This document shows positions 478 to 63,186 of a stretch of DNA of 64,000 bases, piece after piece. The notes beneath the pieces were generated by a model. It was not told where the DNA came from. It searched no databases and saw nothing but the letters and a program-made list of their open reading frames with translations. Position 1 is the first letter of the stretch, and every line of letters begins with the position of its first letter. The stretch is from an uncultured delta proteobacterium (lineage in GTDB: Bacteria > Desulfobacterota > BSN033 > UBA1163). The DNA is taken from positions 640,001 through 704,000 of the forward strand of contig CAWHBU010000002.1 in the NCBI GenBank assembly GCA_963827685.1. Direction: 5' to 3'. A program made the position numbers and the translations under genes.

Positions 478-1646
478 AAAAAGGTTTCAGGGACATGAAA
501 GAGGCAGAGGACACTCAGGGAACCGGATTGATCGCGAACCCGGTTTATCATTACATGGTGATGACCGACCGAATAGAAGGGGAGAGGACAGAAAGGGATG
601 TGATCGACACCCCCTGGGTCCAACGCCTTCGGCGCATCTTCCAACTTCAAAGCGCTCGCTGGGTATTTCCCACGGCCGAACATACTCGTTTCCAACACTC
701 CCTTGGGACCATGTACGTCGCAGGGACTTTCTCTGAGCAGCTTTATCCCTCTCTCCTCAAGATTTTCAAAACAGAACTCCCCTCTTTTCCCTATTTAGAT
801 GAGGTCCTTCGCTTGGCTGGGCTCCTCCATGACACGGGACACGGCCCCTTTTGCCATTTCTTTGATGAGCATTATCTTTCTCGGTTCAACACCAATCATG
901 AGGAGATCGGTCAGCAGATCCTCCGAGAAAAAATGTCTTCCCTGTTAAGGGGAATTCGGCGAAGTCCACACGGTCCGTTCGAAAAAGCAGAAGTCCTTGA
1001 TCCGGAACAGATTGCCTTCCTGATTAAGAGGCCCCAAAAGAAGGAGGGGCGAAAACATCCAAAGTGGTTGAAGTTCCTCCAGCAACTCTTTCGAGGAATC
1101 TTTACCTTCGATAATATCGACTACGTGTTGCGAGATGCCTATATGACCGGTGTCTCCATCGGGCCAGTGGATTGGAGGCGACTCCTTTACTACACCTCTT
1201 TTTGCAAGGAGGGCCTGATTTTGGATAAAAGAGGCATGGATGCATTGGCCATGTTTCTCAATGCCCGTCTCTATCTTTATTCCAATGTTTATTATCATCG
1301 AACCACTCGTTCCATTGATCTTCAGTTGCAAGAAATATTTAAAGAGACGATGGAGATTCTCTGTCCGTTTCATCCTTTGAAGGAGATAGACCGATACCTC
1401 TCGCTGACCGATTGGTTTGTGATGGAAAAGGTATCGGAGTGGAAAGGGTCTTTGTCGCCTCGGGAAAGAAAACTGGGAGAAAAGTGGGCTGAGGTGCTTT
1501 CAAGGAAGTTGAAGTGGAGTAGCGTCTTTGAGGAGAAACTTACCCTCAAAGAGATGGAGATGGGACGACCGATCTTCTTAAAACCCGAAGAGGTGAAGCT
1601 GAAAATCAAGGCCTTTTTGTCGAAAGGGAATCTTGTCTTGGGTTAG
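474..1646 (+). CDS. HD-domain phosphohydrolase (dGTPase/SAMHD1-like), C-terminus possibly truncated
   Basis: [41 protein letters not shown] and VYYHRTTR motifs. Confidence 0.85.
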
Positions 1647-1748
1647 CGCGCGTGTTAAGATACTACTGACTGTTACGAACCATTCCTGGTTCATTTCCGG
1701 GTTTGGTAATCAGAAAAATTTAAGAGAAGAGAGAAAGAAATCGTGGGC

Positions 1749-3083
1749 ATGAGAGAGAACGGATATCAGAAACAAGCGATGGGGATTTACCAATTCATCA
1801 GTGAACACCTGTACTTTAACCGTCCAGACATGGAAATTAAAGGGCAGCGTTTTAATTCGGTGATCCTGCTGAGCCTTCTTACTGGGTTGAGAAAAGGAAA
1901 AGAATTGATCATTGGAGAACCAGGACTGGGGAAGACGACCTCCGCAGAGTATGTCTGTTCGCTCATCTACCAATTCCCATTGGGCGTGATTTGGGGGAGT
2001 GAGGTTTCAGGGCATCCGGAACAAACGGAGGAAAAAATTATTGGCAGACCGGATTTGGGCAAATTGAACCGAGGCGAGGAGGACGTGGTGTGGACCAATT
2101 TCTCCCAAATCCCAGTGAAAATTGTCGATGAGATCAACCGCCTTCCCGAAACCAAACAGAGTATGATCTTGGACGGGGTGGATCGGGGGAATTGGGAATA
2201 CCTTAACGAGATGATCATTAACGATGAATACTGTCTCTTTGCAACGGCCAATTATCAAGATGGAGGGACCAATACGATCATCGCTCCTCTGGTGGATCGA
2301 TTCGATGTCATGGTGGAATCGAGGTACCCCGGAGCCAATCTCTCTTTTCTCATTGGGAAGGAGAAACGAAAAGATCATATCCTGAGGCATCCCAAGTATG
2401 AAAAGGACCTTTATCTCGTTCTGAAATCTAAGATCGCTTATGAGAAGAAGATTCCTAAAATTGAAGAGGTTTGTAATGCCTATGGGGAATATCTTGATGA
2501 GGCATTAGAGGTCAAGTGCTTCCAGAGACAAGATCGTGATCGGATCCGTACAGAAATGGAAACTTTAGAGTTGGACCTCGATGCTAGTGCCTTTACTCGC
2601 ATGCTTCTCGCTGAATTGTCTTTCTGTGAACGGTATGGGCAGAAACGCGTTGTTGAAAACTGTGAAGAAGGTTGTCACTATACGGGGTATCTTTGCCACC
2701 AAATTAAAAACTGTGCCTCCAATCGACTCCCTTCCTCCATGAAGCAATATGCCCAGGGATTGGCATGGTTGTTGGAAGACTCGGAGATCGATATCGAACA
2801 TATCAAGGCAGTCGTCCCCTATACCTTGGCTCATCGGATCCAATGGAAAGATGAGATCCTTTCCCAGAAGGAGAGATCGAAAAGGGATGACCCCTTCCCC
2901 ATTTTTCTTGCAAAGGAAGCGGTGAAAGCGATTTCTCAGAGATACCGAGAGCAAAGCGAACATCTGAAAGATGCGCTGGCGGCCGGATCGAAGATCTTTC
3001 AAGGAGAGGATCTGGAGCCACTGGAAGGGGATCACCCCATTTATGTGGAAGTCAAAAAAGACATCGATGCTCGAAAGAGGTGA
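1749..3083 (+). CDS. MoxR-like AAA+ ATPase
   Basis: Walker A GEPGLGKTT, Walker B KIVDEINR, FATAN sensor, LVDRFD arginine finger, LAHRI lid; Cys cluster FCERY..C..GCHY..LC..NC. Confidence 0.85.
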   Translation: MRENGYQKQAMGIYQFISEHLYFNRPDMEIKGQRFNSVILLSLLTGLRKGKELIIGEPGLGKTTSAEYVCSLIYQFPLGVIWGSEVSGHPEQTEEKIIGRPDLGKLNRGEEDVVWTNFSQIPVKIVDEINRLPETKQSMILDGVDRGNWEYLNEMIINDEYCLFATANYQDGGTNTIIAPLVDRFDVMVESRYPGANLSFLIGKEKRKDHILRHPKYEKDLYLVLKSKIAYEKKIPKIEEVCNAYGEYLDEALEVKCFQRQDRDRIRTEMETLELDLDASAFTRMLLAELSFCERYGQKRVVENCEEGCHYTGYLCHQIKNCASNRLPSSMKQYAQGLAWLLEDSEIDIEHIKAVVPYTLAHRIQWKDEILSQKERSKRDDPFPIFLAKEAVKAISQRYREQSEHLKDALAAGSKIFQGEDLEPLEGDHPIYVEVKKDIDARKR

Positions 3084-3895
3084 GGCGAGAACATTTCTTC
3101 TATCCTGTTTTTGAGGAGTTAGATTTGAAGATGAAATCTTCCATGCCGCCTAAGAAGAGTTCGATCCCCCCCCCGGACAAAGAGAACTGGATCGCCAAGA
3201 ATCCCTTTGAAGAATTTGAGACTTTTGCCGCCTCTGCCCCTGACCTTCCCATGGATCAGATTGTCCAACTCACCGAGGCGGTCATGGATCAGATCCGGTG
3301 GGGATACGAGAAGCTTTTAGAAGAGGAAGCCAAGGAACTTGTCTGGATGGTCCAATACAATACAATCATCAAGGCCTATGAGGTGGCAGAGAAATATGTC
3401 AAGGAGATCGACTATGCCGCAGAGGATATCGAAGACTTCTGTTTTGCCTTAGAGAATACCCAAAGAATTCCGTATCTCATCCCCGGCCCAGCCGGGATCT
3501 ACATTTCTGCTTTGTGTAACTACACGAAGGAAGAAGAGATCTTCCTCAAACTTTCTGAATTGAAAACGGAGATCAATCTCATTGGATTTCGGCTGCCGAA
3601 AGGAAAACGACTGATGATCGAGGGAGACGCCGGTGACTTCACAGGCATTGGGCTTGAAGGTGGAGAATTGGTCATTGAGGGAAATGCAAAGAACTGGACA
3701 GGAGCAGGGATGAGAGGGGGAAAGATTTTAGTCAAGAAGAACATCGGCCTCCATACAGGTGAATGGATGATGGGAGGAGAGATCTATGTGGGAGGGAGAA
3801 TAAGGGGGCTGGGAAATATTGTCGACGGGAAGGTCTACGAGAGGGATAAACTCGTCTATCCTGGAAAGATGCGGTATCCCAATCTCTACTATTAA
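3080..3895 (+). CDS. Protein with C-terminal GXGXG beta-helix (FwdC/glutamate synthase C-terminal-like repeats)
   Basis: Repeats IEGDAGDFTGIGLEGGELVIEGNAKNWTGAGMRGGKILV..GEWMMGGEIYV; overlaps the AAA stop codon (GTGA). Confidence 0.7.
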   Translation: MRREHFFYPVFEELDLKMKSSMPPKKSSIPPPDKENWIAKNPFEEFETFAASAPDLPMDQIVQLTEAVMDQIRWGYEKLLEEEAKELVWMVQYNTIIKAYEVAEKYVKEIDYAAEDIEDFCFALENTQRIPYLIPGPAGIYISALCNYTKEEEIFLKLSELKTEINLIGFRLPKGKRLMIEGDAGDFTGIGLEGGELVIEGNAKNWTGAGMRGGKILVKKNIGLHTGEWMMGGEIYVGGRIRGLGNIVDGKVYERDKLVYPGKMRYPNLYY

Positions 3896-5676: not shown

Positions 5677-6348
5677 ATGGAACAAGAGATCTTAGAGGCA
5701 AGATACACCCATCAAGAGATTATCCAGAAATATAATTGGATTGCACCGATCTATGATTTGTTTGGAATTTTGATGGAGTCAAAAGCCCGTCAACGGGCGT
5801 TGGAGATCGCCGCGATTCAGAATGGAGAAAAGATTCTGGAAGTAGCCCTTGGAACCGGACTCAATTTTGTCGAAATATTGAAGAGGAATCCGAATGGATG
5901 GGTGGATGGAATTGATGTTTCCAAGAAGATGGTGGAGAAGGCAAGAAAAAGGATTTGTAAGACAGGGCAAAAGAATTATACCCTCTATCTCTGTGATTGT
6001 CGGCATCTTCCCTTCGATGACGAAACTTTTGATGTCATCACGACCCAATATCTCTTGGACATCCTCCCGGTTGAGGATTTCATTCCCATTCTTTTGGAGT
6101 TTAGAAGAGTTCTAAAGGATGGAGGCAGAATTGTTTTAGTCAACATGACAAAAGGGGAGAGATGGCTGAATCAAATATATGAAGGGATTTATAAACTAAA
6201 GCCTCCTCTCTTAGCTGGATGCAGAGGGGTTATGGCCCAGCCTTTTCTCGAAAAGATTGGATTCAATCAATTTCACAGGGAATTTGTATCCCAGCTTGGA
6301 TTTCCTTCAGAGGTGGTGCGAGGAATAAAGCAGGATGGGTTTGGCTAA
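5677..6348 (+). CDS. Class I SAM-dependent methyltransferase (UbiE/PmtA-like)
   Basis: ILEVALGTG motif I, GIDVSKKMV, LPFDDETFD, RRVLKDGG. Confidence 0.85.
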   Translation: MEQEILEARYTHQEIIQKYNWIAPIYDLFGILMESKARQRALEIAAIQNGEKILEVALGTGLNFVEILKRNPNGWVDGIDVSKKMVEKARKRICKTGQKNYTLYLCDCRHLPFDDETFDVITTQYLLDILPVEDFIPILLEFRRVLKDGGRIVLVNMTKGERWLNQIYEGIYKLKPPLLAGCRGVMAQPFLEKIGFNQFHREFVSQLGFPSEVVRGIKQDGFG

Positions 6349-6522
6349 GAATTATCGGTAACATATTTGAGATTTGTTAGAATTACATTGATTAAAGATT
6401 AGGCATTTTGCTAATGAAACCTAGAATAGGCCATCTTCCGGTTAATGATGAAGGTTTTCAACAGGGTATTCACAAAATATGTGGGAAACAAATCCAAGCC
6501 GTTAATTTTATATAATAAATTC

Positions 6523-6615
6523 AAAAGGGATCAGTTAGAGGAGGGCCATAACTGATCCCGACCAGTACATCAAATGGGGGTGAAACAAGGAGGTGATATG
6601 GTTTGATGTACTGGC
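6523..6615 (-). ncRNA. Candidate ~93-nt small RNA with two hairpins carrying CCUCC loops
   Basis: 13-bp stem (6562-6574/6602-6614) and 11-bp stem (6527-6537/6549-6559) followed by UUUU on the minus strand; TTGATT-17-TAGTAT promoter at 6651-6623. Confidence 0.55.
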
Positions 6616-6695
6616 TGAAATAATACTAATATATTATGTGAGGAAAATCAATAGTGAGAAAGTATTTGGCATGAGAATTGCTGGAGGATATGGTT

Positions 6696-7223
6696 ATGAA
6701 ACGAATTTCAGTTATTGTTTTGTTTGCCTTTTTCATTTCAGAAATCTCTTTCGCTGAGGTTTACAAATGGGTGGATGAAAAAGGAGCGGTCCACTTCACG
6801 GATGATATGACGCAAGTCCCGGAAAAATATCGACCTAAGGCTGAAGAAGTTGGCTCATCTGAAGAGAAGGAGGAAACAAAATCAGAAGGACAAATAACGC
6901 CCAAGGGAAAAGAGGAGACTTATAAGGATCAATCAGGGAGGGGAGAAGAGTATTGGAAGGGACGAGTGGAGGAATGGAGGAGAAAATTAGGAGAACAACA
7001 AGATAGATTGAAAACGTTGGAAGTTAAATACAATGAATTGACAATGAGGTTCAACGATTCAAAAAGCACGGCTGAGAGGGGAAATCTCCGGAAAGAAAGA
7101 GACCAGGTCAAGAATGAAATGGATCAATGTAAGATCCAAATTGAAGAAGCCAGGGATATGCTGGAAAAAAAGATTCCAGAAGAAGCGGAACTCTATAAAG
7201 CAAAGCCAGAATGGGTAAAATAG
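6696..7223 (+). CDS. DUF4124-family exported protein with coiled-coil C-terminus
   Basis: Signal peptide then EVYKWVDEKGAVHFTDD..VPEKYR. Confidence 0.8.
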   Translation: MKRISVIVLFAFFISEISFAEVYKWVDEKGAVHFTDDMTQVPEKYRPKAEEVGSSEEKEETKSEGQITPKGKEETYKDQSGRGEEYWKGRVEEWRRKLGEQQDRLKTLEVKYNELTMRFNDSKSTAERGNLRKERDQVKNEMDQCKIQIEEARDMLEKKIPEEAELYKAKPEWVK

Positions 7224-7389
7224 TGAAAATATTTCAGGGGCCTTAAAAAAAGTATCCATGCACAAAAATCGATTGAAAAACTGATAACTTTCTATTTTCA
7301 AAGAGAAATTCTCCTTGCCCCATTTTCAATATCCTTGATCGAATAATAAAAATATGACAATTTGTGAAGGGGTTAAGAAAACAATTGTA

Positions 7390-7406
7390 TTGGTATTGTT
7401 CTTGCT
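7390..7406 (+). promoter_or_regulatory. Putative sigma54 promoter upstream of PilZ gene
   Basis: TTGGTATTGTTCTTGCT: GG(7392-93)-N10-GC(7404-05), in AT-rich context. Confidence 0.45.
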
Positions 7407-7553
7407 TATAAATTAAATTTATAAATAATTATTGTATTATGATAGAATATTGACCAAAATCCAAGGCAAAAGTGAGCCTTATGATAGAGAGGGGAGAAAT
7501 GGCATTAAAAATGCGCACTTAGTCGAAAATGGTGCCGAAGAGTCTGATCAAAA

Positions 7554-7952
7554 ATGGACAAAATGAAGAATAATCAATTTATGTCCCAGAGCAAGATGGG
7601 TGTCCTCGCCATCGAAAAGAGGAAATACCCAAGGTTCAGCGTGGAACTGCCCCTCAATTATTCCCGTGCAGATGCGAAAGAAACATTTGGGGGGATGGTA
7701 GCGAATGCGAGCGAGGGGGGACTTCTCGTCTATCTGCCTGAAAGGATCGAGATAGGAGCTTTGTTGAAAATTGAGATATTATACGTGAGAGGTTTGGAAT
7801 TGGATACCATTAGAGCAGTGGCAAAAGTAGTTTGGTGTGATTTGGCTGCCAGGGAAAGCTGGGGCGAGCACCGATATGGATTGCAGTTTCAATATATTGA
7901 TGGAAAAGACTTTGGTCAGTTGACGAGTTTATTGAAAGAGGTGGGAAAATAG
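7554..7952 (+). CDS. PilZ-domain protein (c-di-GMP receptor)
   Basis: EKRKYPRF (RxxxR) and NASEGG (D/NxSxxG) motifs. Confidence 0.85.
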   Translation: MDKMKNNQFMSQSKMGVLAIEKRKYPRFSVELPLNYSRADAKETFGGMVANASEGGLLVYLPERIEIGALLKIEILYVRGLELDTIRAVAKVVWCDLAARESWGEHRYGLQFQYIDGKDFGQLTSLLKEVGK

Positions 7953-8176
7953 AACATTATGGAGGGAGGGAAAAACCTCTTTTTCGAAGTCATTGAGTTA
8001 GAAAAAAATATGTTGAACTATTTTAAGAAATTATTTAAAAATAAGGAGAAGAGCATGAATCCGCCCCGTTCGGGCATCGCTGAGAGGGGACCCTGAATTT
8101 TTCATCCTATGGAAGGTAACTAGAAATCTCCCTTGATATGGTTTAGGAAAAACCTGCTCGGCAGAAAAGGAACATC

Positions 8177-10198
8177 ATGGTTGCATTAAATCAGGAAGAA
8201 GGGAGATACAGAGTCCTCCTCATCGGTATCGGGAATAACACTGAAGAAGAAAAAAATTCCTTCTGTCGTAACATTTCTAAACAATACAGTATTTCCTCCG
8301 CTCTGTTAGAAAAGATCGTTGACCGTTGTCCTGTCATCCTCAAAAAAAATATTTCCTTAATAAAAGCCAAAATTCTTGCTAAGACCTTCAAGTCTTTCGG
8401 GGCAACGGTCTCTATAGAGGAAAGAAGAAATTTTCCACCCATCTCTCTTGAATTTCAGGAATTGGTCCCTCACCGTTTGGCCTTGGAATCCTCCTATCTC
8501 CGGAAGACACAAAGAGGAACATGGAGCGTCATAGGAAGGGCAAAAAATATATCTGATGAGACTTTGAATGACACCTGGGTGCTCACTCAACTTTTTGAAG
8601 ATCTTGAAGAGTTCGTTGCCTTTGAAGAAACTCCTCTCCCCATTAACCCTCTGCCTCCAGGAGAAACCTCTCCCTTTAGGGTAATCTTTGAAGGAGACTT
8701 TTCTATTAAAAGAATTTCCGTTGCCTTTAAGAATGCTTCGGGACAGCCCATTCCGGCAGTAGATGAAAGAAAAAAGAGGGAGTGGGTGGAGGTGGAGAGA
8801 GGAGAGGAAGGGTCTCTTTCTTCTCCCCGGATGTTAACAAAATTCAAAAAGAGGGCCCAGGCCGTTGATCTGACCAAACCTGCAGAAAAAGTAATCCTCA
8901 CAAAGGAGAAAGAAATCCAAGAAGAGACACCCCTCTTCATGGAGCAGGAAGTGGGGGTTCCCCTTGAAAAAGAAATAAGAGAAGAACAGGGAGGAGATGC
9001 CGAAAGAATCTCTGAGGATTCCCTTTCGGCAACCCTTGAACCTTTAGAAAAAGTCTTGGAGTCCTCCTTGAGTATGCTCGAAGAGAATAGCTACCCAGGA
9101 GGAGAGGAACCAGAGAAAGCCTTAGGACATGAAACCTTCGAGGAATCTGCTCGGCCTACGCCGGAAAAAACGGAAGAAAAGATAGATGAAGCGGCTTTGG
9201 GTGAGTTAGAGATACCCTCTGTTGAGGTGAAAGTGGCTGAAGAGTCATGCTTTGACGCTTCTGTATTTGAGGAACCTACGCAATTGCTGAAGGATATCTC
9301 TGGGCGTCCAGGAGAAGGAGAGGTTGAAGAAAAAGCGGAGGAGAGTGAAGGAGACGTAGTGAAAGAAGAAGGAGTGAGAGAAGAACCTGCAGAGAAAGAG
9401 GGGGGGGCTTCGTTCTCCTGGATGGAATATTTTAGAAAAGCAGTGGAAACTTATCATCAAAGACCCCATGATATTTTTTCGATATGGTTTGAGGAACGTC
9501 GAGGGGGAGGTGAATTTAGAAATTCCTTTCATGCTCTTTTGACCATATTCGTTCATTCCCGATTTGACCAAGGGAATGAGTCTATCAAAGCATTGGAAAA
9601 CACCCAAAAGGTATTCCGACTCATCGTTCAGCCGAATCTTGCACTTGATGAGATACCGTTTCTTGAAGGGACACGCTTTGCATCAGGAGAAGTTTGGAGA
9701 GATCTGTTTCATCGAGCACTCCCTAAGGTCCACCAGATTGGAAATGCTGTTCTTGAAAGAAATAAATGGAACGCATTTGATTTAGAACGGTTGATTCAGG
9801 TGATTCCTCATATGGACCATCGAAACAGCCGGAGGGCGACCCGATTAATCAACGAATTGATTGCGGATGTCGTGGAAGTGGGTTTTTCAGACACCCCCGT
9901 AACCATCGGAGAAGATCTCTACAGAGTTGCCTCTCGGTTAGGCGTTGTGGATCCCGATCTCGACTATTATCAAGGTGGAAATTCGACGGCAGATATCAAA
10001 ATTCAATCTTTTGCAAAAGCCGCTTTTCCTCAGAACCCTGTCAAGGTCGAGGAACCGATGGCCTGCATGGGGAGCGGAGAAGAGCGAGGAGGGCATTGTT
10101 TCCCTGTCCAACCATGGTGCGAGGGGTGCCTCTTCGAAGCCTTCTGCCCAAAGCTTCACGTTCTCTTTAAGCCATCAGAAAAAGGGATGAGAGAGTGA
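8177..10198 (+). CDS. Multidomain protein: L7/L12-CTD-like + FxLYD-like + acidic linker + degenerate endonuclease III-like domain with [4Fe-4S] motif
   Basis: PVILKKNIS..KAKILAKTFKSFGATVSIE; VIGRAKNISDE..LPPGETSPF; C-terminal C-x6-C-x2-C-x5-C (CFPVQPWCEGCLFEAFC). Confidence 0.6.
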   Translation: MVALNQEEGRYRVLLIGIGNNTEEEKNSFCRNISKQYSISSALLEKIVDRCPVILKKNISLIKAKILAKTFKSFGATVSIEERRNFPPISLEFQELVPHRLALESSYLRKTQRGTWSVIGRAKNISDETLNDTWVLTQLFEDLEEFVAFEETPLPINPLPPGETSPFRVIFEGDFSIKRISVAFKNASGQPIPAVDERKKREWVEVERGEEGSLSSPRMLTKFKKRAQAVDLTKPAEKVILTKEKEIQEETPLFMEQEVGVPLEKEIREEQGGDAERISEDSLSATLEPLEKVLESSLSMLEENSYPGGEEPEKALGHETFEESARPTPEKTEEKIDEAALGELEIPSVEVKVAEESCFDASVFEEPTQLLKDISGRPGEGEVEEKAEESEGDVVKEEGVREEPAEKEGGASFSWMEYFRKAVETYHQRPHDIFSIWFEERRGGGEFRNSFHALLTIFVHSRFDQGNESIKALENTQKVFRLIVQPNLALDEIPFLEGTRFASGEVWRDLFHRALPKVHQIGNAVLERNKWNAFDLERLIQVIPHMDHRNSRRATRLINELIADVVEVGFSDTPVTIGEDLYRVASRLGVVDPDLDYYQGGNSTADIKIQSFAKAAFPQNPVKVEEPMACMGSGEERGGHCFPVQPWCEGCLFEAFCPKLHVLFKPSEKGMRE

Positions 10199-59726: not shown

Positions 59727-60100
59727 CTTCTATGCAACATTACAAAGGGAAATCAGCAATATGAGGTAAATTATGGACGGAATTTTCCCCTTGATTTTCC
59801 ATGCACATGAGAGTATGTTGTATTTATAGTATTTCCCACCTGGCCCTAATTAACTTTACAACTTAACCTCTAACCTTCTTGGGTGCCGTATGAAGAGGAG
59901 ATTCCAGAAGGTGCCCCTATTTCGGTTCCAAAGGGATTCTTATGCCCCTTGGAGCCTTTTTAATTTTTAGATTCTTTTAATGTGTTAGGGGTCCTCCTAT
60001 TAACTCTACTCACAAATTGTGCCCTGACAATCGGGATTAAAAAAAAGGGAGGGGACTTCCGTTTTATCGGGGTTGATCGAATGAAAGGAGGTCGGTGCAA

Positions 60101-60808
60101 ATGAGGGAATTAAGCAAGTTGGACAGGACCTATAATTTCATCCTGAGACGTATGACGGAGACTGGCCAAGCGCCTTTTTATACGGAAATTGCCGCTGAGT
60201 TGAGGGTTTCCGTGGAAGAAGGTCGTAAAGCCCTCCATGATCTCTTTGGAGCGGGAATTCCTGGTTGGCTATTTCCGAATACAGACCTTATCGCTTCTTT
60301 TGCCCCCTTCAACAATCTTCCCAACCAGTACCGGATCACCGTCGAAGGGCAACAGAAGTGGTTTGGTCAGTGAGGGTTTGAGTCGCTGGCGGTCAGCTGG
60401 CTCTTCAAAAGAAAAACAGTGCGGATCGATGCTCCATGTCTTGATTGCGGATCACCCATCCGGGTGGAGATGAAAGATGGTATAATTAAAAATACTGAGC
60501 CCAAAGGGCTGATAGGATACACGTCTGTACCTTTTAAGGAATGGTTCAAAGACCTTCCTTATAGCTGAAGTACCATGAATCTCTTCCGGTCGGAAGAGCA
60601 CATTCGTAATTGGAGCGGTTTCAAATCGGGTACTGAAGAAGGGATCGTTGAATTGTCGGCCGTGGCTAAACTTTTTTCGATTGATGGTTTTAAGAGGCGT
60701 TTGGACCCGGATTATGTTTCCAATTATCAGAAGTATTTAAAGGAATTCATCTCTGCCCTTGGAGAGATGGGGAAAATCCGCCCATTCTGGTCACCGCCGG
60801 GTCCGTAA
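60101..60808 (+). CDS. MerB (organomercurial lyase)-like selenoprotein, 235 aa, two Sec
   Basis: In-frame TGA at 60371 (WFGQ-U-GFESL) and 60566 (PYS-U-STMNLFRSEEH); AAGGAGGT RBS; SECIS-like hairpins after both TGAs. Confidence 0.85.
60377..60409 (+). promoter_or_regulatory. SECIS-like hairpin 1
   Basis: GAG-TC-GCTG-[GCGGT]-CAGC-T-GG-CTC; GGTC begins 17 nt after the UGA. Confidence 0.65.
60575..60607 (+). promoter_or_regulatory. SECIS-like hairpin 2
   Basis: ATGAAT-CTCTTCC-[GGTC]-GGAAGAG-CAC-ATTCGT; GGTC begins 19 nt after the UGA. Confidence 0.75.
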
Positions 60809-60838
60809 CGGTGCGTGATTAGTTTTTACTTAATTACT

Positions 60839-60871
60839 GGCGGGGTCAGAAATGGCCCTGCCTCCCTTTTT
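60839..60871 (+). terminator. Intrinsic terminator after the merB-like gene
   Basis: GGCGGGGTCA-GAAA-TGGCCCTGCC then TCCCTTTTT. Confidence 0.6.
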
Positions 60872-61032
60872 GGCTTATGCTTGCTTTCTATTGGTAATCG
60901 TCAGCCTTGAAGATTATCTTGGACCGAAGAGTAGGTAGGTGCTATACGTAACAAAAAGGTGATTGAAAGTTAAGCTTATCAGGTTCATCATCTATCTGTA
61001 TTTCCTATTGATTCAAAGGAAAGGAGATAGAG

Positions 61033-62196
61033 ATGGACCAGAGGGCTATAGAATATTGCAGCGTCATTCCAACGAATGAATCCCTGACGGAATTTAGAAG
61101 TATTGATCGACGGGAGGGGATTCACCCATCCATTTTTTTATCCAAGGCCCATAGAAGAAAATCAGAGAGGCCGTGTTGTCCTGAGCTCGAGGCGAAGGCA
61201 AGAGCGTTTCAATGGGCACTGAATCGGGTTGCAGGCTGGGGCTTGCCGGGAAAAGAGCACGTTGAGGGCTATTTGCGGGACATGTGTAGGCGGGGTCTCA
61301 GGCCAAAAACGTACTTCAGTAACCTGACCGCAATCTATATTTTTCTCACTCTTATTAGAGGTTCCGGAAAGACCCGTTTGGAGGAGATCACCAAGGATGA
61401 TCTGGAGGTTTTTATTGAACATGAGCAGGATCGGGGGTTAATGATATCGACGGTGCGAACAAGGCTTCACTGTGTCAATGCTTTTTTAGGCTATCTGATT
61501 GAAGCAGGTGCGATTCGTAGTAATGTTCTGGCAAGAAGAATTCGTCTGAGGAAGCCCGAGACCTTACCGAGGGCCATAGATCCGGACGATGTGAAAGCAT
61601 TACTTTCTGTTATCAACAATCCCAGAGACCGGGCCATGGTGATGGTGCTTTTACGGACGGGGATGAGAATCGGTGAATTGCTGAGTACCAGGATGCAGGA
61701 TCTTCACCTCAAGGATCGAAGAGTGGATATCTACGAGGGGGAAAAGAACCGCATCGGAAGAGTGGTTTACCTCAGTGAAGATGCCATGCAGGCTTTGAAA
61801 GCCTGGATCAAGGTGAAGGATTCTCATAAAGTATATCTCTTTTATGCGACGGGCAAGAACGCCATGTCCTATACGACCGCACACCTCATGTTCAAAGGCT
61901 ACCTGACGAAAGCCGGTCTTGCCCATAAGGGGTATTGCCTCCATGCCCTACGACATACGTTTGCCAGTGAGCTTTTAAATGCCGGTATGCGCCTCGAATG
62001 CCTCCAACCGCTGATGGGGCATACCTCTGTGGATGTGACGCGGCGCTATGCGCGGCTCACGGATAAGACCAGAGAGCAAGAGTACTTCAGAGCCATGACG
62101 ATTATAGAAAGGGGGGAGCTGAATGGATCTTACCGACTCGATCATCAGGTACAGGCGTTTCTTGAAGAGAAGGAACGTCTCACCGAATACCGTTAA
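61033..62196 (+). CDS. Tyrosine recombinase A
   Basis: SAM-like N-terminal domain, RTGMRIGE, GEKN, HALRH, LMGH, RRY. Confidence 0.92.
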   Translation: MDQRAIEYCSVIPTNESLTEFRSIDRREGIHPSIFLSKAHRRKSERPCCPELEAKARAFQWALNRVAGWGLPGKEHVEGYLRDMCRRGLRPKTYFSNLTAIYIFLTLIRGSGKTRLEEITKDDLEVFIEHEQDRGLMISTVRTRLHCVNAFLGYLIEAGAIRSNVLARRIRLRKPETLPRAIDPDDVKALLSVINNPRDRAMVMVLLRTGMRIGELLSTRMQDLHLKDRRVDIYEGEKNRIGRVVYLSEDAMQALKAWIKVKDSHKVYLFYATGKNAMSYTTAHLMFKGYLTKAGLAHKGYCLHALRHTFASELLNAGMRLECLQPLMGHTSVDVTRRYARLTDKTREQEYFRAMTIIERGELNGSYRLDHQVQAFLEEKERLTEYR

Positions 62197-63016
62197 GCAC
62201 TATTTAAACAGTCTGAAGCACTTTGTTCTCTGGCTGGATGAGCCGATCGAAAAGGTCACCTACAGAAAGGTTGACGAGTATATGGATGACCTGCTTGGAA
62301 AACGGCTAAAACCTAAGACCGTCAACTGTTATCTCAACAGCATCTGTCAGTTTTACCACTACCTCTGCGAAGAAGAGGGACTCCGGATCGTCAACCCTGT
62401 GAAGAAGCCAAATATCATGAAGCTTCCCAGAGGGCTTCCCAAACATCTGAGAGACGAGCACATAGAGATCCTCTTCAAGCATCTGAAAGGGCGAAGGGAT
62501 CAGGCCATCTTCACGCTCATGCTCCGATGCGGATTACGGGTAGAAGAAGTGGCTCACCTTTCCCTCAGCAATATTGATCTGAAACGCAGAATGCTGCTCA
62601 TCCAGGATGGCAAGGGTGCGAAGGATCGGATTGTCTATCTCAGCAACGATGCCCTTCATGCTCTCCTGGAATATCTAAGGGTGCGACCCGCAAATAAAGT
62701 AAGAAAGGTTTTTCTTGTAGAGAAAGGGCCTCTCAGCGGGCAACCTTTATCCATTCGCGGCATCCAGAAACGGATGGAATATTATGCCCGCAAAACAAAC
62801 TTGAGAATCTCCTGCCACCATCTTCGCCATACGATGGCAACGCAGATGTTGAATGCGGATGCGGACCTCTCTACCATCCAGGATCTTTTGGGGCATAACT
62901 CTATCAGGACGACCCAACGCTACTGCCGGGTATCAAACCTCAAAGTACAGAGAGATTACTACAAAGCCATGGAGGTGATCATGCAACGAACGGCTGGCAA
63001 CCCAAATAATCCTTGA
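62123..63016 (+). CDS. Tyrosine recombinase B (XerD-like)
   Basis: SPNTVKHY, RCGLRVEE, GKGAKDR, HHLRH, LLGH, QRY; overlaps recombinase A by 74 nt. Confidence 0.92.
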   Translation: MDLTDSIIRYRRFLKRRNVSPNTVKHYLNSLKHFVLWLDEPIEKVTYRKVDEYMDDLLGKRLKPKTVNCYLNSICQFYHYLCEEEGLRIVNPVKKPNIMKLPRGLPKHLRDEHIEILFKHLKGRRDQAIFTLMLRCGLRVEEVAHLSLSNIDLKRRMLLIQDGKGAKDRIVYLSNDALHALLEYLRVRPANKVRKVFLVEKGPLSGQPLSIRGIQKRMEYYARKTNLRISCHHLRHTMATQMLNADADLSTIQDLLGHNSIRTTQRYCRVSNLKVQRDYYKAMEVIMQRTAGNPNNP

Positions 63017-63096
63017 CATGAGAAAGAAATTATGAAAACTTAAACACTACGCAACATCATAATATCAATAGTAAATACGGATTATGTTACGTATAG

Positions 63097-63186
63097 GTAG
63101 GTGAAAGTTTCAAGCTGGACTTGTGACTGGCGAGACTTAGGAAGAATGTGGATTTCTTCCTGAAAGAGTGATTTTCAAATCTCGCC
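63097..63186 (+). repeat. Repeat E copy 2
   Basis: Homologous to 59638-59726. Confidence 0.75.

Follow-up and report, generated by a model that had tools for sequence, protein, structure and literature searches.

The stretch of DNA analyzed here (the window) comprises 64,000 nucleotides of contig CAWHBU010000002.1 from an uncultured delta proteobacterium of the Desulfobacterota, and at 60101-60808 of it lies a gene that standard gene calling breaks into three open reading frames (ORFs) of 92, 49 and 77 aa, and that very probably encodes a single MerB-family protein with two selenocysteine (Sec) residues. Coordinates are window positions on the + strand unless a locus label is given, and G000 denotes the source genome (5.23 Mb in 14 contigs, 94.5% complete). 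ORFs 60095-60373 and 60575-60808 lie in a common frame, and 64 open codons (60374-60565) separate the in-frame TGA at 60371-60373 from the one at 60566-60568. Translation with TGA as U from the ATG at 60101 to the TAA at 60806-60808 yields a product of 235 aa, with U91 and U156 spaced by 65 residues and with the local motifs WFGQ-U-GFE-SL, P-CLDC-G and YS-U-STMNLFRS. The initial annotation of this DNA had described one frame shared across two TGAs with 64 open codons between them, preceded by a ribosome-binding site and followed by a terminator, and direct reading of the gene and its flanks bears this out. The features are as follows.

60086-60091, + strand: Shine-Dalgarno-like AGGAGG, with the ATG 9 nt downstream (direct sequence reading).
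60101-60808, + strand: coding sequence of the putative MerB-family selenoprotein, 235 aa (P0001), including the TAA (translation, Pfam, fold and periodicity).
60371-60373, + strand: UGA 1, putative Sec91, at the MerB Cys96 column (profile alignment to the MerB chains of PDB).
60380-60382, + strand: GAG, Glu94, at the column of Asp99, which donates the proton in MerB (profile alignment).
60385-60401, + strand: hairpin 1, resembling a selenocysteine insertion sequence (SECIS), stem GCUGGC/GCUGGC (comparative pairing).
60437-60448, + strand: CLDC motif with Cys113 and Cys116, Cys113 being at the MerB Cys117 column (profile alignment).
60566-60568, + strand: UGA 2, putative Sec156, at the MerB Cys159 column (profile alignment).
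60581-60598, + strand: SECIS-like hairpin 2, stem CUCUUCC/GGAAGAG, loop GGUC (comparative pairing).
60839-60872, + strand: intrinsic-terminator-like hairpin (60839-60862) followed by a T run, starting 31 nt past the stop codon.

The two-TGA pattern of the frame goes far beyond chance. Among distinct relatives with the same 65-codon spacing, 152 of 152 carry an in-frame TGA at exactly these two codons, and a single one carries an extra in-frame TGA. TAA or TAG occurs on average 0.01 times per sequence in the gene frame vs 2.4-2.7 times in the other two frames, and coding periodicity is found in all three segments (entropy of 1.42-1.52 bits at codon position 3 vs 0.48-0.87 bits at positions 1 and 2).

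The read-through product matches the Pfam MerB family PF03243 over residues 72-188 (61.8 bits, cut-off 27), and a six-frame search of the genome with the same model gives 45.3 bits with two TGAs within the match. A profile of 21 family members was searched against the PDB sequences and an AlphaFold2 model was built from that alignment. Among the solved structures MerB2 (5C17) was the best match (E 1.7e-10), followed by MerB (3F2G, 1S6L and others, E ~1e-5), and the predicted model (mean predicted local distance difference test score 94.6, predicted template-modelling score 0.89) consists of an N-terminal winged-helix-like part and then the catalytic core. In a Foldseek search of PDB with this model, the top 11 matches were all MerB or MerB2 (probability 1.00, E 6e-10 to 1.4e-6, target-normalised template-modelling scores 0.58-0.71), and the 12th match had E 0.26. 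In the profile-to-PDB alignment UGA 1 falls on Cys96, Glu94 on Asp99, the first Cys of CLDC on Cys117 and UGA 2 on Cys159, with the consensus 'WfaqCgfE' aligned on MerB 'YAWCALD' and 'yaCstmnlfrS' on 'F-CSHVHFFAS'. The canonical catalytic residues Cys96/Asp99/Cys159 are thus replaced by Sec/Glu/Sec, a chemically analogous set but not the residues that define MerB. Between the TGAs, E94, L96, C113, L114, D115, C116, G117 and P119 are invariant in alignment A1. The Glu94 codon is GAA or GAG in 111 of the 112 matches in genome loci described below and the codons of both CLDC cysteines swap between TGT and TGC in the same matches, all of it synonymous variation; in 120 database proteins the acid column holds E in 115 and D in 5. 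Cys113 probably has a buried structural role by analogy with MerB Cys117, which is described as buried and structural where PMC10114901 summarises the MerB mechanism.

The NCBIfam SaoL model NF040728 gave 35.8 bits vs a cut-off of 140, in a match that spans residues 66-136 only, and no model of NCBIfam release 20 claims the protein. Since SaoL and two MerB models score below their NCBIfam cut-offs, the product falls in neither named subfamily, and judged from the profile comparisons and the predicted model it is a MerB-fold protein distinct from both SaoL and canonical MerB. These results agree with what had been proposed from the letters of the window: membership in the MerB family, UGAs at the Cys96 and Cys159 columns with Glu at Asp99 and CLDC at Cys117, and separation from SaoL.

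The Sec machinery, whose presence had been named as a check, is found in the source genome: selA (629.9 bits), selB (357 bits), selD (384 bits, with one in-frame TGA) and tRNA-Sec(tca). In addition, selA was found in four of five other carrier genomes checked, the fifth genome being 90% complete. We then read the two columns at the DNA level. A tblastn search in loci of species-representative genomes gave 112 matches (107 distinct genes), 109 of them TGA/TGA, with one TGC/TGA, one TGC/TGC and one TGA/GTA, the last of which also holds a TAA and has probably decayed; 82 matches on metagenome contigs comprised 63 TGA/TGA, 17 TGY/TGA and 2 that do not span the columns. After deduplication there were 175 distinct relatives (156 Sec/Sec, 17 Cys/Sec, 1 Cys/Cys, 1 odd), in which column 1 is TGA in 157 and TGC or TGT in 18 and column 2 is TGA in 173. 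The TGA pair is retained in relatives down to ~45% identity, and TGG was found at neither column among the genome loci and metagenome DNA matches. Homologs with Cys or TGA at these columns, as the initial annotation had anticipated, are therefore what the DNA holds.

A maximum-likelihood tree was built from 130 of 185 rows, leaving out Sec/Sec rows at least 85% identical to a kept one, matches with fewer than 200 aligned residues, matches with stops and two unpublished loci. The family forms one group (Shimodaira-Hasegawa-like approximate likelihood ratio support 91), whose sister is a Cys-Glu-Cys group of ~300 aa. Cys/Sec forms need at least three to four changes and the four Cys/Cys forms need four, all of them nested among Sec/Sec sequences. 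Such nested interchange of Sec and Cys, as read from the aligned sequences, is what is usually seen where a Sec codon is functional.

Each UGA is followed by a small hairpin inside the coding sequence. Hairpin 1 (17 nt) starts 11 nt past UGA 1 and has a 6-bp stem with G-U pairs and the loop GGUCA. Its pairing holds in 99.7% of 888 cells (148 distinct sequences), the control with the 3' arm slid by 1-3 columns leaving 13-59% of cells paired, and its basal pair shows a compensatory GC<->CG double change in 13 of the 148 sequences. Third codon positions are conserved at 0.73-1.00 inside the hairpin vs 0.34-0.68 outside. Further, hairpin 1 is complete (6/6 pairs) in 154/157 sequences where site 1 is TGA vs 2/18 where it is Cys, and the conservation of the loop is lost in the Cys forms as well. 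The Cys-site-1 forms belong mostly to one subclade, which differs there in amino acids too, so that the 18 sequences are not independent events; on the aligned sequences, the decay of hairpin 1 alongside Cys is nevertheless the most telling internal control. Hairpin 2 (18 nt) starts 12 nt past UGA 2 and has a 7-bp stem, with the GGUC loop in 168 of 173 sequences, 7/7 pairs in 145 and 6/7 in 26, and CG<->UA compensatory changes at two pairs (143/11 and 111/16); folded as a single sequence it gives z = -2.45. Both hairpins resemble the E. coli fdhF element, which we take to have a GGUC-type loop, an 11-nt spacer and a 17-nt minimal hairpin.

Public databases hold the family in pieces. In the 120 best database proteins, with columns read from the protein records, 62 have Cys at site 1 and nothing at site 2, and 58 of these stop exactly at residue 155, before UGA 2; the remaining 58 comprise 51 W/W, 4 Cys/Cys and 3 others. 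Only one of the 120, P0027 (Cys/Cys), matches a surveyed locus, L119, at >=99%. Among the 150 best cluster representatives, by hand count, ~30 end exactly at residue 90 and 15 start at 159-160, and one NCBI record labels a 155-aa piece 'organomercurial lyase'. Since public proteins end or begin at the UGAs, the early statement that gene callers break up this gene is correct. No run of public reads contained as much as half of the sampled words. UGA 1 (record 10) and UGA 2 (record 12) are each spanned by contigs from relatives 80-95% alike in the metatranscriptome X18, which is no proof of transcription.

The W/W records bear on the reading that there is no selenoprotein here at all and that the locus would instead be a degenerate MerB pseudogene, a trio of separate small genes, or one gene whose TGAs encode Trp. 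The three ORFs of standard calling and the Trp at both columns in 51 of 120 database relatives would fit such a reading. The W/W proteins, however, all come from contigs of ~1-2.7 kb, W at one column alone was never seen among the 120, and we read them, known as they are from protein records alone, as the output of a gene caller that used code 4 for TGA; Trp homologs had been named as a refuting observation for this gene, and no DNA locus has TGG. Code 4 itself was ruled out by the Cys/TGA columns, by the missing TGG and because TGA is otherwise a normal stop in the source genome, where 785 of 2106 ORFs with >=300 aa have it as their stop codon. Moreover, both TGAs are kept in 156/175 distinct relatives with no other in-frame stops, the replacement codon is Cys and never TGG, a hairpin follows each TGA and the first is lost where the codon is Cys, and the full Sec machinery is encoded in a genome in which TGA is a frequent true stop. 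A locus without a selenoprotein is thus already contradicted by the comparative sequence data and we consider it extremely improbable, and we are highly confident that the gene encodes a real two-Sec MerB-fold selenoprotein.

For this selenoprotein we propose the following function. SelB and tRNA-Sec would read both UGAs as selenocysteine, each directed by its own small hairpin 11-12 nt downstream within the coding sequence, and the product would be one cytoplasmic MerB-fold protein of 235 aa. The selenolates of Sec91 and Sec156 would capture the metal atom of an organometal, most likely methylmercury, Glu94 would protonate the carbon, and the hydrocarbon would leave with the metal staying between the two seleniums; since MerA is missing, the metal would then be handed to thiols or sulfide. 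Selenolates bind mercury more strongly and faster than thiolates, and a di-selenol site would suit the capture of trace methylmercury in sulfidic habitats. Catalysis, substrate and hand-off are all inferred from the fold and the active-site columns. As a whole, a di-selenol MerB-like organometal lyase is the best explanation, which we favor with moderate confidence; carbon-metal lyase activity itself appears reasonably probable by analogy with MerB, and methylmercury is put forward only tentatively as the physiological substrate. Selenoamino acids are stated in PMC10114901 to demethylate methylmercury chemically, and one obligate anaerobe that carries MerB to degrade it.

Several observations weigh against the proposed lyase. 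The NCBI MerB equivalog models NF033555 and NF009710 score 21.4 vs 193 and 17 vs 200, the acid residue is Glu and not Asp, and the Cys160 equivalent is absent. In isolation, hairpin 1 does not fold better than shuffled sequences (z = -0.38), so the case for the hairpins rests on comparison across relatives, and an Rfam scan of 60050-60900 matched no SECIS family. Turnover is uncertain because two selenolates would hold a metal that is hard to release, and MerB without MerA yields Hg(II), which a study in the reference list of PMC12484752 reportedly links to lowered resistance in a laboratory host. The genomic context is no help either: 827 neighbor ORFs from 107 loci were clustered (selenoprotein neighbors would be fragmented, since the ORF caller treats TGA as a stop), and the top family, acyl-CoA dehydrogenase, occurs in only 9 loci, with no mer or ars gene, followed by amidase (8), a ferredoxin-domain protein (7), an AMP-binding enzyme (7) and ComEC (6), which share no functional theme. 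No merR- or merT-like gene was found in any family locus searched and no MerA over the cut-off in the source genome at its 94.5% completeness. At E <= 1e-50, hgcA was present in 19 of 38 carriers vs 101 of 363 non-carriers (hand count, uncorrected for kinship); since the excess is modest and the genomes are related, this co-occurrence is too weak and was not used as support.

That modest hgcA excess, together with the slow product release to be expected from two selenolates, would also suit a protein that does not catalyze, namely a very-high-affinity binder or chaperone for Hg(II), Cd, Cu(I), As(III) or methylmercury, in which two selenolates and the CxxC pair would sequester the ligand or pass it on, with HgcAB as one possible donor or recipient. 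The same is suggested by U91, U156, C113 and C116, four invariant soft ligands, and MerB is described as retaining Hg(II) after catalysis, its D99S variant as binding copper (PMC10114901). Such a binder would, however, have no need of the proton-donor carboxylate, which is kept at the frequencies given above (E 115 and D 5 of 120; GAA or GAG in 111/112); the CxxC may not reach the site, since Cys113 aligns with the buried structural Cys117 of MerB; and selenocysteine would be costly in a stoichiometric protein. We regard the binder as quite unlikely.

It is still less probable that the MerB fold has been re-used for a redox enzyme, in which Sec91 and Sec156 would cycle between selenol and diselenide or selenenyl-sulfide with CLDC resolving and a non-metal substrate. 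Most bacterial selenoproteins are redox enzymes in which Sec stands for a redox-active Cys (PMC13188914). Canonical MerB lacks the second Cys of the CxxC, which is confined to this family, to a second two-TGA clade described below (clade B, CAHC) and to part of a distant acidobacterial clade. Against a redox role, a thioredoxin or reductase gene is not a conserved neighbor in the 107 loci, and we know of no MerB-fold protein that acts as a redox enzyme.

The window copy lies downstream of genes for a PAS histidine kinase, a response-regulator diguanylate cyclase and a PilZ protein, and upstream of two tyrosine-recombinase genes. These two overlapping genes make up a 2172-bp element (60934-63105) that starts 126 nt past the stop codon and that has three near-identical copies in the genome, the others being C4:734774-736945 and C1:55738-57905 (100% and 99.8% identity). 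Since the element begins beyond the terminator, the MerB-like gene is not its cargo. The initial annotation had placed the gene in a mobile module, which did not hold up: the integrases belong to this separate three-copy element, and relatives of the gene occur in many unrelated chromosomal contexts. Its description as stand-alone without a mer or sao partner did hold, no neighbor family exceeding 9/107 loci and the merR, merT and MerA searches being empty; SaoC was not found in the source genome either, in a weak search whose control matched nowhere and which covered SaoC alone of the Sao models. The gene is thus stand-alone and chromosomal. At the terminator hairpin itself, the Rfam scan gave a sub-threshold Moco-riboswitch match (60838-60873, 20.1 vs 36 bits), which is probably due to chance.

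The source genome has a paralog on contig C3, 66% identical and with TGA at both same columns. It lies at 8443-9150 of locus L277 (G000:C3:1227000-1238139), directly after an ACR3 arsenite efflux gene (7244-8335; TIGR00832 466 bits vs cut-off 282.8), in a run of genes on one strand (6184-10125) made up of a thioredoxin-domain gene, ACR3, the paralog and a DUF169 gene; a DUF169 gene follows a family member in 4 loci. This arrangement, with the paralog on the same strand as the ACR3 and thioredoxin-domain genes, would be expected if the same selenoenzyme used the same chemistry on another organometal or organometalloid (methylated or aromatic arsenicals, organotin, organolead or organoantimony) and the freed ion were exported. 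The family lacks accompanying mer genes, and in the view of the authors who described SaoL, Sec at the metal site may alter the substrate range of MerB-like proteins (bioRxiv 10.1101/2022.07.06.499078). An ACR3 query against all family loci, however, matched in L001 and L102 only, and the genes read beside the window copy include no transporter. Moreover, to our knowledge no MerB relative cleaves C-As bonds. A substrate of this other kind we consider unlikely.

The hgcA gene of the source genome is itself unusual. It lies in L228 (G000:C4:641500-646000) at 1283-3480, carries a Cys-Sec (CU) motif in an N-terminal extension and is broken by an IS200-like transposase gene (2212-2679), the remainder of hgcA (2812-3120) being followed by hgcB (3133-3480). 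The same IS200-like transposase gene is also found near the paralog (L277, 10188-10652).

A pattern scan of species-representative genomes found at least 532 relatives and a metagenome scan at least 570. Of the former, the 80 listed come mostly from Desulfobacterota or 'delta proteobacterium' metagenome-assembled genomes, including Desulfobacterales, Syntrophales and Desulfarculales, with single Acidobacteriota, Hyphomicrobiales, Abyssobacteria and Poribacteria assemblies among them. In 401 sampled genomes of the phylum of the window, 45 match at E <= 1e-10, and 44 of 55 places carry two TGAs. From these searches the family appears to be a large one of sediment bacteria, mainly of Desulfobacterota, and previously unannotated. 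We found no description of a two-Sec MerB-like protein in full-text literature, subscription journals and supplements being beyond reach, and in the main text of the BSepDB paper (PMC13326102) neither MerB nor SaoL nor any word in mercur- is mentioned. Of the 119 prokaryotic selenoprotein families or subfamilies counted in a 2026 review, most have a single Sec, and in the available portion of that review SaoL, with one Sec, is the sole MerB-like entry (PMC13188914). Since SaoL is the known MerB-like selenoprotein, and for the present protein neither an NCBIfam model nor a literature description was found, we take it to be a variant of a known MerB-like kind that is new in its two Sec residues. 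Two Sec acting, as we suppose, as paired ligands of one catalytic metal site would be rare, and here each has its own in-frame recoding hairpin within 235 codons.

Anaerobic demethylation mechanisms are called obscure in the portion of PMC10114901 that treats them, and surveys typically call genes with Prodigal before filtering for Cys96, Cys159 and Asp99 (PMC12484752). Such pipelines would discard two-TGA genes, so that estimates of anoxic demethylation potential may be biased. We further suggest, as a doubtful though conceivable extension, that this family and clade B are the long-sought methylmercury-degrading enzyme of anoxic sediments that is independent of the mer operon, a di-selenol MerB that would take trace methylmercury from thiol and sulfide complexes in sulfate-reducing and syntrophic Desulfobacterota. 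Many such Desulfobacterota also make methylmercury via HgcAB, and surveys would have missed the enzyme because gene callers split it at the UGAs and screens require Cys96, Asp99 and Cys159. Since natural Cys/Cys (P0027, P0053) and Cys/Sec versions exist, the chemistry is directly testable.

Other MerB-like clades with TGA are present in the same phylum. The 401 Desulfobacterota genomes hold 88 Pfam-MerB places, of which 66 have two TGAs, 10 one and 12 none, and 22 of the two-TGA places were not matched by the window protein. The 17 of these that were fetched form clade B (loci L255 and L259-L274; e.g. L262, 2701-3435, + strand), with TGA at both ligand columns in 17/17 and Asp kept in 16/17. 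In the translations read, clade B proteins are of ~245 aa with the motifs LYAA-U-AVD and AF-U-KESVFFRSEE and with CAHC at the Cys117 column, and 6 of 9 loci examined have a MarR-family gene immediately upstream in the same orientation.

The one-TGA forms include SaoL-like CU proteins. In L230 (G380:C9:69822-73190) the only TGA of a near-canonical MerB (YAMCALD) falls on the Cys159 column (SL-U-RTMVFL); MerR-like and MerT-like frames flank the gene, an arrangement suggestive of a mer-type operon whose MerB contains selenocysteine. L234 and L236 resemble it. A distant clade of Acidobacteriota (L129-L144, L146, L147; 24-32% identity) combines Cys and Asp with a lone TGA at the Cys159 column and occurs in 19 of 301 sampled genomes; two unpublished loci (L128, L145) were left off this list, and nothing rests on them.

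Compared with known systems, the protein shares with MerB (plasmid R831b; PDB 3F0O, 3F0P, 1S6L) the Pfam family and fold, the layout of a winged-helix-like N-terminal part ahead of the catalytic core, the coinciding ligand and acid columns and the retained Cys117. It differs from MerB in Sec for Cys96 and Cys159, Glu for Asp99, the missing Cys160, the extra Cys116 that makes a CxxC, an identity of only ~19%, and the lack of a mer operon (merR, merT/P, merA), the neighbors being unrelated housekeeping genes. The solved structure that the sequence matches best is that of Bacillus megaterium MerB2 (PDB 5C17). In this enzyme both ligand columns are Cys and the acid column is Ser, and its activity is described as much reduced (PMC10114901). 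SaoL, a MerB-like selenoprotein of the SAO locus in Clostridioides difficile and other anaerobes, likewise belongs to strict anaerobes, has Sec at the Cys159 column and is truncated in databases at its UGA, and is characterized in the portion of its description available to us by a single Sec within a CU dipeptide, by retention of Cys and Asp at the remaining columns and by a conserved nine-gene locus (Haft and Gwadz 2022, bioRxiv 10.1101/2022.07.06.499078), whereas the two Sec of the window protein are flanked as Q-U-G and S-U-S, its acid column is Glu and its gene neighborhood is not conserved. The ~300-aa cousins of the same phylum (WYGE-C-AVE), which form the sister group, share the Glu of the acid column but have Cys at both ligand columns and a longer C-terminus. 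Clade B shares both ligand-column TGAs and the CxxC with the window family, but keeps Asp (U-A-V-D) and stands apart on a long branch of the tree.

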